28,426 nucleotides of DNA from a virus (lineage: Duplodnaviria; Heunggongvirae; Uroviricota; Caudoviricetes), in the IMG/VR virus record IMGVR_UViG_2913123054_000008; one strand, 5' to 3'. Position numbers and translations under genes: made by a program. The notes under the pieces were generated by a model. It was given only the letters and a program-made list of their open reading frames with translations. It ran no database searches and was not told where the DNA came from. Below, piece by piece: positions 21,352 to 27,352 of this stretch. Within the stretch, counting starts at the first letter, position 1. Every line of letters begins with the position of its first letter.

Positions 21352-21582
21352 TTAACGCCAGCTATCGTCTTCCCAAATCTCTTGTAATATGCCGCTTAAT
21401 GTTTCTTTGTCTGCTTCTTTATCGAATCCGATAACCTCTACACCAGTCATTGACCCTTTCTTGACGTTAACTTTTATTGCTGGAAAAACGCATTGTACTC
21501 GATGTGTTATTTCATTCTGAAAAGCATCAATGATCTGTTGCCCTAATTTTTGTTCTTTATCCAACGTGATATTGATTCTCAT
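21352..21582 (-). CDS. dinI: DinI-family protein (DNA-damage-inducible protein I-like)
   Basis: 76 aa; MRINITLDKEQKLGQQIIDAFQNEITHRVQCVFP...VIGFDKEADKETLSGILQEIWEDDSW aligns by eye with E. coli DinI along its length; downstream of an SOS box. Confidence 0.8.
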   Translation of the reverse strand: MRINITLDKEQKLGQQIIDAFQNEITHRVQCVFPAIKVNVKKGSMTGVEVIGFDKEADKETLSGILQEIWEDDSWR

Positions 21583-21585
21583 AAT

Positions 21586-21768
21586 CTAATCAGCCTTATA
21601 AAAATTATCATCTTCGGTTTCGTTATTCTCGCTGTTTGCTAGGTCTGCAATGAGAGTGAGCGCGAGCTTTAAGTCTGATGGCTTGCAGTTTGCAATCAGA
21701 GATACCTCGGCAATAAATTGCACACAAGCCCACTTTTGCTGCGTTCGGCTGAAATGTTCGTCAACCAT
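21586..21768 (-). CDS. small protein, first gene of the SOS-controlled operon (possible Tum antirepressor N-terminal part)
   Basis: 60 aa ORF with a near-perfect RBS (GGAGGG) and a LexA box just upstream; ends with TAG in the same frame as, and 3 nt before, the dinI-like ATG. Confidence 0.5.
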   Translation of the reverse strand: MVDEHFSRTQQKWACVQFIAEVSLIANCKPSDLKLALTLIADLANSENNETEDDNFYKAD

Positions 21769-25131: not shown

Positions 25132-25641
25132 TCAAATCAGACCAAACGATGCGCCAATACCGCTCATGGTATCGACCACGCTCGACATAGCTGGATTAGT
25201 CTGCAGACGTGCATGCAGCGCCAGAGCCGACAATGACAACATGCGAATGCCGGAGTTAACGCTTTCAATCATGTTGTGCTTACGGGCAATGGTCAGACGT
25301 TCATCAGATACCGCGCCGCTCGCCAGTTCGCCGAGTTCACGCATTGCGCGCATGACATAAGACTGCAATTTGTCTTTAGCCAACTCATTAACCGGCACGC
25401 ATGGTAGGCAGTGAATCTGCGCTAAAAAACCATCAATGAGGGTTGAGTCTTCGGTCAGGTCAGTCAGCAGCCACAATTCAGGCGGCGTGAACTGGTGAGG
25501 CTGTTCCGGATTGAGCTTGTTACGTAACGTTTGAACGTTCATACCTGCACGCTCGGCCAGCTTCGCCATGTTGTGACGCTGTGCGAAAATGCGGCATGCT
25601 TCGTCATAGTGGGGATGTTTGGAAACCTGAAAATCAAACAT
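25132..25641 (-). CDS. cII: CII-type regulatory protein (186 CII / CP76 family)
   Basis: Start at MFDFQVSKHPHYDEACRIFAQRHNMAKLAERAGMNVQTLRNKLNPEQ... gives 169 aa with a GAGGG RBS; the N-terminal motif matches my recollection of the phage CP76/CII family; position after apl as in 186. Confidence 0.7.
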   Translation of the reverse strand: MFDFQVSKHPHYDEACRIFAQRHNMAKLAERAGMNVQTLRNKLNPEQPHQFTPPELWLLTDLTEDSTLIDGFLAQIHCLPCVPVNELAKDKLQSYVMRAMRELGELASGAVSDERLTIARKHNMIESVNSGIRMLSLSALALHARLQTNPAMSSVVDTMSGIGASFGLI

Positions 25642-25673
25642 GGTTAAATTCCCTCTAACTTGCATAATCAAAT

Positions 25674-26045
25674 TCAGTTAAGAGCGGTGCGCTGGTCGAT
25701 GTAGCGACAATCAATCGCTTGTTGAGTCAGCTTATCGCGCCATGCTTTTACATTTACGAGGGTTCGGCTTCGTTTAGCAGCTTCCTCTTTGTTGGAAAAG
25801 TCTTTGGTCGGAGCTTTGAGAAGGACTCCCTCATCGAGCCATTGCCAGACCAGACGCTCGCTAACACCGCGAGTAGCGGCGAAGTCTTTCACAGTCATCG
25901 TGTCTGACATAGCGGAGCGAATCATTGTCTGTAGAGCTGGCAGCATGGCGGTAACGATGGCATCAAACTGTGTTGGATCTAGCAGCACAGTTTGATTTTG
26001 TGAGTTTTGCGAGTCGTGCGTCGAGATTGATTTTGCATCTGACAT
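25674..26045 (-). CDS. Apl/Cox-like excisionase-type HTH regulator (first gene of the early lytic operon)
   Basis: ORF with a strong RBS (AGGAGA) at the 26045 start; HTH-like segment VKDFAATRGVSERLVWQWLDEG; divergent from the repressor gene. Several internal Met codons make the true start uncertain. Confidence 0.55.
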   Translation of the reverse strand: MSDAKSISTHDSQNSQNQTVLLDPTQFDAIVTAMLPALQTMIRSAMSDTMTVKDFAATRGVSERLVWQWLDEGVLLKAPTKDFSNKEEAAKRSRTLVNVKAWRDKLTQQAIDCRYIDQRTALN

Positions 26046-26158
26046 ATCGCATTATCTCCTGTTGTTTGAAATGTAGTGCAGTGGTGTGCATCTTGGTCGA
26101 TGAGCACCAATATAGATCGCTAAATTTTGGTTGTAAACAAAATTCTTGTTGGTGTCAT
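26046..26158. promoter_or_regulatory. immunity switch region between the apl-like and cI genes (lytic/lysogenic promoters and operators expected)
   Basis: 113 bp AT-rich intergenic region between divergent regulators; contains short inverted repeats (e.g. TTGGT-N8-ACCAA). Individual promoters are not resolved by eye. Confidence 0.4.
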
Positions 26159-27004
26159 ATGTCTAAAAATGATGTTAATGCGTCTGCCGCATTGGAACGT
26201 GTCCTTTCTGCATACGGCTTTAAGCAGCAAAAGGAACTAGCCGAAAGGCTTGGCATACATGCAAACAACGTGAGTAGCTGGCTTGCTAGAAACGTAATCC
26301 CTAGCAACGTTTTCGTTGAGTGTGCTCTTGATACTGGAGCTGACCTGCGATGGCTAATTAATGGTGAGCTTGCAAATGCAAGATTTGAAGTGGTGAAAAC
26401 TAAGCTTAAAGGTAAGCAACTCTATGATGAAATCATGGCAAATGGAGGGAGGGCGGTTCTGCGTCGGATTCTCGATGCGTATGGTTTTACTCTGCAAAAA
26501 GAGCTTGGAGATTTATTAGGTATATCTTCCGGCACTATAAGCACTTGGGTTAGACGCGATTTTTTCCCCGGTGACGTGGTTGTCACTTGCGCCCTTGATA
26601 CTGGCGTATCGTTAGAATGGTTATCAACCGGAAAAGGCCAGATGCGTAACAGTAATGATGGTGAACCGGCAAATGCTTTAACGATTAGAAAGTGCCGCCT
26701 CGAGGCGGGCGAACTCAAAGATATCGGACGCTGGACTCCTGATATATCTATGGTTTCATCAAATACTGATGATTTAGTGTTTATTGATGGTGTGAGCACA
26801 TCTTGGCTTGTTGATAGTTCTAACTCGAAGATAGGAAATGGTCGCTGGCTTATTGGTATTGATGGCGCACTCGATGTTTTTGACGTAATCAGGTTGCCAG
26901 GCGGAAAGGTCAGGTTATCAAATAAGTCTGCTGAGTTTGAATGTAATATTTCAGATATCACACCATCAGGTGCGGTTATTTTTACTTTGGAAAAGCATGT
27001 TTAA
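26159..27004 (+). CDS. cI: CI-type immunity repressor with an apparently duplicated N-terminal DNA-binding domain
   Basis: 281 aa from MSKNDVNAS...; two tandem segments (about aa 10-69 and 99-158) each resemble the 186 CI N-terminal HTH domain, followed by a C-terminal domain resembling the CI oligomerisation domain. Confidence 0.75.
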   Translation: MSKNDVNASAALERVLSAYGFKQQKELAERLGIHANNVSSWLARNVIPSNVFVECALDTGADLRWLINGELANARFEVVKTKLKGKQLYDEIMANGGRAVLRRILDAYGFTLQKELGDLLGISSGTISTWVRRDFFPGDVVVTCALDTGVSLEWLSTGKGQMRNSNDGEPANALTIRKCRLEAGELKDIGRWTPDISMVSSNTDDLVFIDGVSTSWLVDSSNSKIGNGRWLIGIDGALDVFDVIRLPGGKVRLSNKSAEFECNISDITPSGAVIFTLEKHV

Positions 27005-27013
27005 GGAGCAGTA

Positions 27014-27352
27014 ATGAAAAAGTTTATATTTGCGATAGTCTGCATTGCACTTTCTTCCTCAGCCATAGCCGCTGAGAAGTTTAAAGAGATAGACGGCGCT
27101 GCATATGGTGACAAGTGGCCTCTAACCTTTGAAAAGGCAAAGGTATCATGTGTTAACCGTGCTTATGCTTTTGTGTATGACATCAAAACTGATGATAGAT
27201 ATCCTCTGAATGGCATGGCGGTAGATGCTGTTAAATCAGGAAAGCTGGAGGGGTCTAACTTAGATGACGTATGGAAGGATGACCCTGAGTATGACGGCGT
27301 TAAAATTTCAATTTCACCGGTGATTGATGCCGCTACAGCCCTTTGTAATTAA
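27014..27352 (+). CDS. small secreted/periplasmic protein (moron between cI and int)
   Basis: 112 aa; N-terminal signal peptide MKKFIFAIVCIALSSSAIA followed by AEK; two Cys in the mature part; low-GC; possibly YebY/DUF2511-like, from memory and unverified. Confidence 0.55.
   Translation: MKKFIFAIVCIALSSSAIAAEKFKEIDGAAYGDKWPLTFEKAKVSCVNRAYAFVYDIKTDDRYPLNGMAVDAVKSGKLEGSNLDDVWKDDPEYDGVKISISPVIDAATALCN

Follow-up and report, generated by a model that had tools for sequence, protein, structure and literature searches.

Why should a phage repressor carry two DNA-binding heads on one chain, and what does each of them read? The question is raised by the cI gene of a 28,426-nt stretch of viral DNA (IMG/VR record IMGVR_UViG_2913123054_000008), hereafter the window, which comprises most of a 186/PSP3-like (Eganvirus-type) E. 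coli prophage. The 186 switch is the textbook alternative to that of lambda, with a repressor wheel, strong operators at the lytic promoter pR and distal sites FL and FR; how one head reads two types of site, and what the distal sites are for, have been studied for decades. An earlier note on the window described its CI as having a tandemly duplicated N-terminal domain (NTD). We propose that the head adjoining the C-terminal domain (CTD), head 2 or NTD2, reads flanking sites of one class, here called F sites, and that the distal head, head 1 or NTD1, sets immunity at pR, both on one oligomerising CTD. We put the probability of this division of labour at roughly 0.6.

Two heads on one polypeptide

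Residues 10-70 and 99-159 of CI aligned without gaps (31/61 identical, 51%; 66% positives; E 9e-24; BLASTP of residues 1-89 against 90-178), at the 89-residue offset described in the earlier note. A repeat search likewise recovered a 24-nt direct repeat in the cI DNA at 26209 and 26476, a spacing of 267 nt. Against Pfam, the whole protein matched PF07022 in two stretches (E 1.5e-47) and PF16452 once, at 176-269. When residues 1-82, 83-170 and 171-281 were scanned separately, the first two each gave PF07022, both above its gathering score of 22 bits, and the third gave PF16452 (E-values in Table 1). The note's structural reading holds: one CI polypeptide combines two helix-turn-helix (HTH) domains of the 186-CI type with one C-terminal domain of the 186 type. 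The cI reading frame is a single, unbroken one in 54/54 loci, that is, in the window and in 53 related loci, and not two separate frames. A Shine-Dalgarno-like GGTG lies 5 nt 5' of the cI ATG; a longer mechanical reading frame from GTG 25970 was set aside, being without support among homologues.

The AlphaFold2 model of CI has two five-helix bundles (NTD1 helices at 8-19, 24-31, 35-44, 49-59 and 63-68), an extra helix at 86-95 and one beta domain, with low-confidence linkers at 72-81 and 161-172. It was built from a 29-sequence alignment and has a mean predicted local distance difference test score (pLDDT) of 76; its predicted template-modelling score (pTM) of 0.40 makes the relative orientation of the domains unreliable, and its use for inter-head geometry was dropped. 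K84, G85, L88, Y89, G96 and G97, around the extra helix, are invariant. The nearest solved structure is that of 186 CI (2FJR, 2FKD), which belongs to the same two Pfam families: residues 10-182 of 2fjr aligned with 100-274 of the window CI (phmmer, E 2.6e-21), and the modelled CTD matched 2fkd_A with a template-modelling (TM) score of 0.90 and a root-mean-square deviation of 2.2 A (Foldseek).

The two-head layout is widespread. Seven sequenced phages have such a CI (PSP3, SEN1, SW9, SI22, Midge, RCIP0057 and vB_EcoM-613R3; 67-91% identical); the window CI is 73% identical to that of the Salmonella phage PSP3 (AAN08403) and 91% identical to that of SW9/SI22. Among 5.8 billion proteins searched there were 1,005 matches, the best 120 of which were all 267-289 aa long, with PF07022 and PF16452, and came from Escherichia, Salmonella, Klebsiella, Enterobacter, Citrobacter, Cronobacter, Kosakonia and other hosts. 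Scanning one genome per species added 47 loci at 49-79% identity, reaching Serratia, Pectobacterium, Dickeya, Erwinia and Brenneria. The layout is that of hundreds of CI proteins from prophages of Enterobacterales, all of them annotated merely "phage repressor protein CI", a label that hides the difference in the prophages of E. coli, Salmonella, Klebsiella, Enterobacter and Serratia, where two-head CIs are common.

The two-head cI sequence is not new, having been in databases since the PSP3 genome. In the one paper found that comments on it, PSP3 CI is said to exceed 186 CI in the length of its C-terminal domain, the duplication going unmentioned (PMC3448106). Our literature searches, which did not extend to subscription-only journals, found no description of a duplicated CI head; as far as searched, the head duplication, the sharp functional asymmetry of the heads and the embedded F site are undescribed. 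One suggestion of the earlier note did not hold, namely that the layout may define a distinct immunity type. It is common to a large family holding many types, and since these differ in head 1 and in pR DNA, the layout itself does not define one.

A natural split of the repressor was observed in locus L061 (2213-3070). There, a 69-aa open reading frame encodes an NTD1-type head only and ends in a stop, and a separate protein of the NTD2-CTD form (P0135, 189 aa) starts about 25 codons farther on. Judged by its sequence, the locus may be either a decaying prophage or a two-gene form of the repressor.

Unequal heads and their candidate sites

The two heads have evolved at very different rates. 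Mean identity to the query among 119 homologues was 61% for NTD1, 92% for NTD2 (minimum 84%) and 72% for the CTD (minimum 53%); among 53 loci, the corresponding values were 58%, 87% (minimum 80%) and 57% (minimum 34%). NTD2 was 80-97% identical across relatives even where the CTD dropped to 34%. Over all pairs (Nei-Gojobori), the proportion of synonymous differences (pS) was 0.77 for NTD1, 0.73 for NTD2 and 0.75 for the CTD, and that of non-synonymous differences (pN) was 0.247, 0.098 and 0.320, respectively. With synonymous sites saturated in each of the three domains, it is purifying selection on the protein that accounts for the invariance of NTD2, and recent sharing of DNA was ruled out as its source. 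The recognition-helix core of NTD2, GT[IMV]STW[VI]RR, is present in every locus, whereas the recognition helix of NTD1 comes in many types (for example NNVSSWLAR, KHSVSGWVQR, SNSVSTWVQR, NNISSWIQR and KSNVAGWLQR).

At non-synonymous sites NTD1 evolves about 2.5 times faster than NTD2, and in L061 it stands apart as a 69-aa reading frame. Both facts would suit a head 1 that is a decaying, non-functional relic of the duplication, with the repressor acting through head 2 as 186 CI does. We consider this very improbable. Purifying selection acts on NTD1 (pN/pS 0.32), and does so more strongly than on the CTD (0.43); NTD1 also passes the Pfam gathering threshold at E 6.9e-19. It keeps Q24, S39, W41 and R44, which match Q113, S128, W130 and R133 of NTD2, and the reading frame is unbroken in 54/54 loci, the window included. 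Moreover, pR is without an F-type operator in most types, so that head 2 alone could not repress there.

Two pairs of loci (L029 and L051, L024 and L049) have NTD1 98-100% and NTD2 92-100% identical but CTDs only 29-32% identical. The same heads on divergent CTDs suggest that the oligomerisation domain is also exchanged as a module.

We compared the DNA at pR with each part of the protein. The candidate pR scored 10/12 in a consensus scan, its element is conserved in all loci, and its position relative to the cI ATG is that of the annotated 186 pR. The DNA block around it is almost invariant in the six loci with the window-type NTD1, while third codon positions nearby vary. Other NTD1 types have different pR palindromes, such as ATCGCAAATGCGAT in the pR spacer of Kosakonia prophages and TCGCAAAATGCGA in Serratia. 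Among the seven phages, the apl analogue, the 55-bp leader, NTD2 and the CTD are common to all, whereas NTD1 and the stretch from the pR -10 to the cI ATG split into three types. Co-variation was measured in 52 loci as ungapped identity over 40 nt around the -35. The pR DNA followed NTD1 (Mantel r 0.77-0.79), with ordinary least-squares coefficients of 0.70 for NTD1, 0.27 for NTD2, 0.09 for the CTD and 0.15 for the leader. Single pairs of loci behaved likewise: the window and L009 are 97% identical in NTD2, 89% in the CTD and 95% in the leader but 59% in NTD1 and 53% in the operator, and L029 and L051 are 100% identical in NTD1 and in the operator but 32% in the CTD. Immunity groups of two-head CIs should be predicted from head 1, not from the whole protein.

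Operators picked by eye or by repeat search in the window alone were rejected, as they included many short chance repeats; two palindromes survived comparison across loci, the 22-bp one over the pR -35 and the one inside cI. TTGGTG/CACCAA repeats by the cI start were also rejected as operators, because their GGTG is likely the ribosome-binding site and is present in all types. Three discrete operators of the 186 kind were not resolvable at the window pR.

The second class of site is an F-type palindrome, TTGCAWWTGCAA, which is invariant across types and lies at the positions of 186 FL (inside cI) and FR and near the promoter pL. The motif TTGCAAAWGCAA, with up to 2 mismatches allowed, had 236 matches in 305 kb of loci, as against 21-50 in shuffles, and these clustered at +196 to +229, -499 to -530 (in Serratia -225 to -243) and -132 to -149 relative to the cI ATG. 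The FL-like site is found at the same place in about 50/54 loci. Codon choice within it is nearly fixed: Leu is CTT in 21/22 and the two Ala codons are GCA in 36/37 and 23/29, against a background of 0.19 (binomial p 1e-12 to 1e-25, with loci treated as independent). Near-fixed codons amid saturated synonymous sites argue that the DNA itself is under selection there. The FR-like site of the window lies 18 nt past the CII half-sites ATGTTTG (25615-25621) and CAAACAT (25635-25641), at the position of the annotated 186 FR, which overlaps pE; PSP3 and SW9 have a perfect 18-bp inverted repeat there, AACTTGCAAAATCAAGTT. The candidate pL (-35 TTGATT at 26027-26032, -10 CATTAT at 26050-26055) is a reading of the sequence below the scan threshold. 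A pL-proximal site is present at -132 to -149 in most loci, including those of Serratia, which keep it though their upstream reading frame starts differently (a reading of the site sequence rather than of a called gene). A scan of viral contigs for the exact 16-mer palindrome was uninformative: only one of 120 loci had a CI homologue, and the rest were chance matches.

The strongest argument that NTD2 reads the F sites comes from relatives with one head. The closest single-head CIs are proteins of 194-196 aa (P0132, P0319, P0350 and others) in P2/186-like prophages of Rahnella, Chimaeribacter and Yersinia. Their own next-best relatives are the two-head proteins, with 50-61% identity over NTD2 and the CTD. 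Their head is 74-79% identical to NTD2 (P0132, 79%) and 50% to NTD1, and its recognition helix, SSGTISTW(V/I)RR, is that of NTD2. We compared five single-head loci (proteins 66-100% identical to P0132), and 5/5 had an F-type palindrome. It lies in the spacer, beside the -35 of the divergent promoter (TTGACA or TTGACG), and its 12-mer begins at position -53 or -52 relative to the ATG. Its sequence, with 0-2 mismatches, is CTTGCATTTGCAAG (exact in two loci), CTTGATTTTGCAAG, CTTGACTTTGCAAG or CTTAAATTTGCAAG. In these single-head phages the F-type palindrome is the predicted lytic-promoter operator, and the repressor has no head other than an NTD2-type one. More distant single-head CIs (P0143, P0144 and P0146) did not serve as a test of co-variation, since their recognition helices and operators differ and include a degenerate F half-site at best.

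We propose the following mechanism. The CTD would dimerise and probably form higher oligomers as in 186, with a pair of NTD2 heads near it and a pair of NTD1 heads farther out. NTD1 pairs would bind the type-specific operators at pR, repressing the lytic operon and defining immunity, that is, which phages are repressed. NTD2 pairs would bind F sites of the form TTGCAAATGCAA, namely FL in cI, FR over pE and the weak site over the candidate pL -35, contacts that would correspond to the distal ones made in 186 by the single CI head. The F sites coincide with codons (cI, apl) and with a promoter (pE), which would keep them from drifting and may lock NTD2 along with them; pR, being non-coding, would be free to co-evolve with NTD1. 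The conserved antirepressor TumA is the probable route of induction and may dock on the invariant part of CI. We infer these head-to-site assignments, the oligomeric state, the regulatory effects and the target of TumA from sequence. The altered operator recognition predicted by the earlier note is supported indirectly, in that the comparative data favour a division of labour between the heads.

The symmetry of the sites also bears on whether NTD1 and NTD2 of one chain might sit on the two half-sites of a single operator, so that a monomer would do the work of a 186 CI dimer and asymmetric operators would be possible. A short inter-head linker (about 10 disordered residues and one helix) would fit such a single-chain pseudo-dimer, as would direct or asymmetric pR repeats (in Midge, ATCGAAAATGAGT and ATCGATTTTGAGT, 21 bp apart), an ATCG conserved after the -10 in most types, and, in some loci, hybrid FL sites, for example TTGCAAATGCGA. 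However, the F-type sites and the clearest type-specific ones (ATCGCAAATGCGAT, TCGCAAAATGCGA, AATTTTG-N8-CAAAATT) are symmetric palindromes, the recognition helices of the two heads differ, the same F palindrome serves single-head repressors, and the hybrid FL variants are synonymous GCA/GCG changes. We regard the arrangement as unlikely.

The conservation of TumA raises another explanation for the invariance of NTD2. In a tblastn search of 50,697 phage records TumA was found only in the 7 phages with a PSP3-type two-head CI, and it is 96.7-98.3% identical across all three of their immunity types. Its near-constancy suggests that the target of the antirepressor may be an invariant part of CI. 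Head 2 might then be kept mainly as a protein-interaction surface, for TumA or for head-head or CTD packing, and add little to sequence-specific DNA binding, with the F sites bound weakly by head 1 or by another factor; the confinement of TumA to this CI type in the phage collection, and the need for its target to be invariant, speak for that. We think it rather improbable as the main role. NTD2 retains a full PF07022 HTH, which outscores that of NTD1, and the same recognition helix is the sole DNA-binding element of single-head repressors with the F palindrome at their promoter. The F sites are invariant and NTD1 is not, and they persist in Serratia with its different upstream frame start. 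An interaction surface is also compatible with DNA binding, and head 2 could be both.

Several points weigh against our assignment of the heads. The pairing of heads with sites is drawn solely from conservation patterns, and the invariance of NTD2 could stem from TumA docking too. The structural model, at a pTM of 0.40, gives no inter-domain geometry. As the operator adjoins NTD1, linkage explains part of their co-variation, although the equally adjacent leader does not co-vary. F-like sites occur at pR in some types (Serratia, TTGTAAATGCAA at -36; Kosakonia, TCGCAAATGCGA at -59), so that head 2 may act at pR too, and the NTD1 half-site of the window type is not definable beyond one palindrome. 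Both the FR-like and the pL-proximal site of the window carry 2 mismatches in the 12-mer. The FL-like site is the only exact copy of CTTG-N6-CAAG in the window, and one in 28 kb is not significant alone (0.48 expected); the spaced motif was rejected as a window-wide signal, significance having come from positional conservation across loci. The codon bias at FL was computed as if loci were independent. Finally, NTD1 is as far from NTD2 as it is from the single heads (50% in both cases), and the polarity could be either from single to double or by loss of head 1 in the single-head group.

Origin of the second head and of the site inside cI

Whichever the polarity, the FL site inside cI is positionally homologous to the single-head operator. 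In single-head loci, the 12-mer starts upstream of the GG codon with which the head opens, at a distance of 74 nt (73 in one). The corresponding distance in two-head loci, between the FL 12-mer and the GG codon of NTD2, is 74 nt in 14 (including the window), 71 in 15, 77 in 11 and 63-68 in 12, and the 74-, 71- and 77-nt classes (40 loci) differ by whole codons. The counterpart of the helix at 86-95 in single-head proteins is their N-terminus, MQLDELEGG (P0132 and P0350 sequences). If about 267 nt, reaching from the operator as far as the head's end, had been duplicated in tandem, three features would follow together: the 89-residue offset, a linker translated from what had been promoter and 5' DNA, and the presence of an F site within the gene. 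Head 2 would be the ancestral-type head, with FL now in the linker-coding part of cI.

We tentatively extend this to a history that seems to us possible but short of probable. A tandem duplication of operator plus head would have made the two-headed CI; the old head and its operator would have been frozen, the operator being kept as a working FL, while the new head and pR diversified, so that heteroimmune relatives would cross-bind each other's flanking sites and share an antirepressor. If the division of labour is true, the two site specificities of 186 CI's one head are here split into two domains. Each function, at pR or at the distal sites, could be removed or swapped separately; new immunity types could arise without disturbing the long-range architecture or induction; and the embedded FL would be a regulatory element kept inside the coding sequence that it helped create.

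Heads have been doubled elsewhere in the wider CI family. The CI of Klebsiella phage ST437-OXA245phi4.2 (Felsduovirus) is 311 aa long, with PF07022 twice and PF16452. The heads of this Felsduovirus type are 56% identical to each other and 29-48% to the window heads, and the linker between them is longer (about 40 aa) than in the window CI. E. coli phage 813R9 has a single-head CI, and NTD2 of the Felsduovirus-type CI is 84% identical to that head. The DNA of the two phages (loci L007 and L056) is 96% identical through cII and cox and diverges sharply at pR, where the palindromes are GTACCCAATTGGGTAC in 813R9 and CGAAATCACATTTCG in ST437-OXA245phi4.2; the inter-head linker of the latter holds a palindrome, TCACAACAATTGTGA. 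The two phages form a natural two-head versus single-head pair for the role of the extra head. In a third group (P0180, P0193) the heads are 53-68% identical within a protein and at most 35% identical to those of other lineages. These sequence relationships suggest that the CI head has been duplicated at least three times, including independently in at least two other lineages. In both lineages with a single-head relative, the CTD-proximal head is the conservative copy.

Distant matches with many tandem HTH repeats were also seen in P0225 (525 aa), P0251 (1170 aa) and P0245 (323 aa); P0225 has seven matched stretches of a unit of about 70 aa.

Gene neighbourhood and comparison with known systems

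The features of the locus are collected in Table 1. The order of genes (int, DUF2511 gene, cI, divergent pR/pL, apl-like gene, cII) places cI at the immunity position, as judged by the map of reading frames, domain matches and synteny with PSP3 and 186. Prophages in about 19 of 5,426 complete E. coli genomes match the switch region at 99.8% identity, and the gene is labelled "phage repressor protein CI" there.

Table 1. Positions of the genes, domains and candidate sites of the window
Feature	Position	Strand	Remarks
dinI-like gene	21352..21582	-	After tumA; DinI phrog_189 match
tumA-like antirepressor gene	21586..21768	-	60 aa; 96.7-98.3% identical to PSP3 TumA
cII	25132..25641	-	169 aa from ATG 25641; PF06892 Phage_CP76, E 3e-46
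FR-like site AACTTGCATAATCAAATT	25657..25674	.	Core 25660-25671, TTGCATAATCAA; between cII start and apl-like stop; 2 mismatches
apl/cox analogue	25674..26045	-	123 aa; first gene of the lytic operon; same gene as PSP3 gp30
Weak F-like site TTGATTTTGCAT	26027..26038	.	2 mismatches; overlaps candidate pL -35 and apl-like codons 2-5
Type-specific operator block at pR	26105..26154	.	Includes 22-bp palindrome AATTTTGGTTGTAAACAAAATT (26123-26144) over the -35
Candidate lytic promoter pR	26109..26137	-	-35 TTTACA 26137-26132, 17-nt spacer, -10 TATATT 26114-26109; sigma-70-like
cI	26159..27004	+	281-aa immunity repressor (reading frame and translation, Pfam); ATG 26159, TAA 27002-27004, 281 codons plus stop; NTD1, linker, NTD2, linker, CTD
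NTD1, distal variable PF07022 HTH head	26186..26368	+	Residues 10-70; PF07022 E 6.9e-19 (scan of 1-82); proposed reader of immunity specificity
FL-like site CTTGCAAATGCAAG	26369..26382	.	12-mer core 26370-26381; exact match; cI codons E-L-A-N-A, NTD1/linker junction
Extra conserved helix KQLYDEIMAN (KQLYDEIMANGG)	26414..26443	+	Residues 86-95, ahead of NTD2; AlphaFold2 helix
NTD2, CTD-proximal near-invariant PF07022 HTH head	26453..26647	+	Residues 99-163; PF07022 E 3.8e-28 (scan of 83-170); proposed reader of the F palindrome
CTD, 186-type oligomerisation domain	26684..27001	+	Residues 176-281; PF16452 E 2e-20 (scan of 171-281)
DUF2511 gene	27014-27352	+	Downstream of cI
int	27377 onward		Downstream of cI

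The closest known system is that of 186, with which the window shares the gene order (int, cI, face-to-face pR/pL, apl, cII) and three kinds of position for its candidate repressor sites, at pR, at FL inside cI and at FR at pE. The 186 FL/FR sites (TTCAC-N5-GTGAA) differ in sequence from the 186 pR sites, and 186 CI, which assembles as a wheel of seven dimers wrapping DNA, reads both with one head per monomer. The window CI has two heads, with different recognition helices and different rates of evolution; as it departs from the one-head-per-monomer feature, it is a structural variant and not a canonical 186 CI. The two repressors are about 30-39% identical per domain (CTD about 30%), and the apl and Tum proteins of 186 are different from the apl analogue and TumA of the window. 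The seven two-head phages share with the window the two heads and the neighbours (apl analogue, cII, DUF2511 gene, int, tumA), and their NTD2 is essentially identical to that of the window, whereas NTD1 and pR DNA are of three immunity types. The single-head CIs of Rahnella, Chimaeribacter and Yersinia are without NTD1, and their F palindrome is the operator itself and not intragenic.

Induction of the 186 type works through a LexA-controlled antirepressor, Tum, without self-cleavage of the repressor. Lambda CI and LexA have a self-cleaving S24 CTD with a Ser-Lys dyad; the window CI has no Pfam match to Peptidase_S24 at E <= 1. Its CTD is only distantly similar in structure to the LexA/lambda CTDs (E 1e-5 or weaker, 13-20% identity), a likeness already known for 186 CI. 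The tum locus of the window, 21352-21768 on the minus strand, is split into tumA-like and dinI-like reading frames, and the split tum/dinI of PSP3 has been described (PMC3121763).

Other repressors and regulators offer looser parallels. The C protein of P2 is small (about 99 aa) and binds direct repeats. The window CI differs from it in length and in protein families, and P2 C and CI cannot be aligned (PMC3448106). In the comparative data, the window CI appears to use two separate classes of site, unlike proteins of the AraC/MarA type. Engineered single-chain HTH repressors, AraC/MarA-type proteins and Wolbachia Wmk have two HTH units per polypeptide and belong to unrelated families, and their two units bind adjacent half-sites of one target.

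The cargo between cI and int varies. The window has the DUF2511/YebY-like gene there, and the same slot in L061, L063-L065 and L191 holds a WYL protein, SIR2_2, GmrSD_N, or AAA_15/AAA_21 plus DUF4435. From its contents, the slot looks like a moron or defence hotspot.

The apl/cox analogue had no Pfam match; it matched phrog_3554 and, weakly, the Cox-like excisionase phrog_575 (E 8e-5). The conserved leader beside it (26046-26100) has GTGCA direct repeats 10 bp apart (26076-26080 and 26086-26090), a spaced arrangement that resembles what 186 Apl binds between pR and pL. Within the gene, at 25962-25996, a 14-nt inverted repeat (ATCAAACTGTGTTG / CAGCACAGTTTGAT) is 93% complementary across a 7-nt gap, and the direct repeat TTGATTTTG occurs twice, 35 bp apart, at 25989-26000 and 26024-26035.

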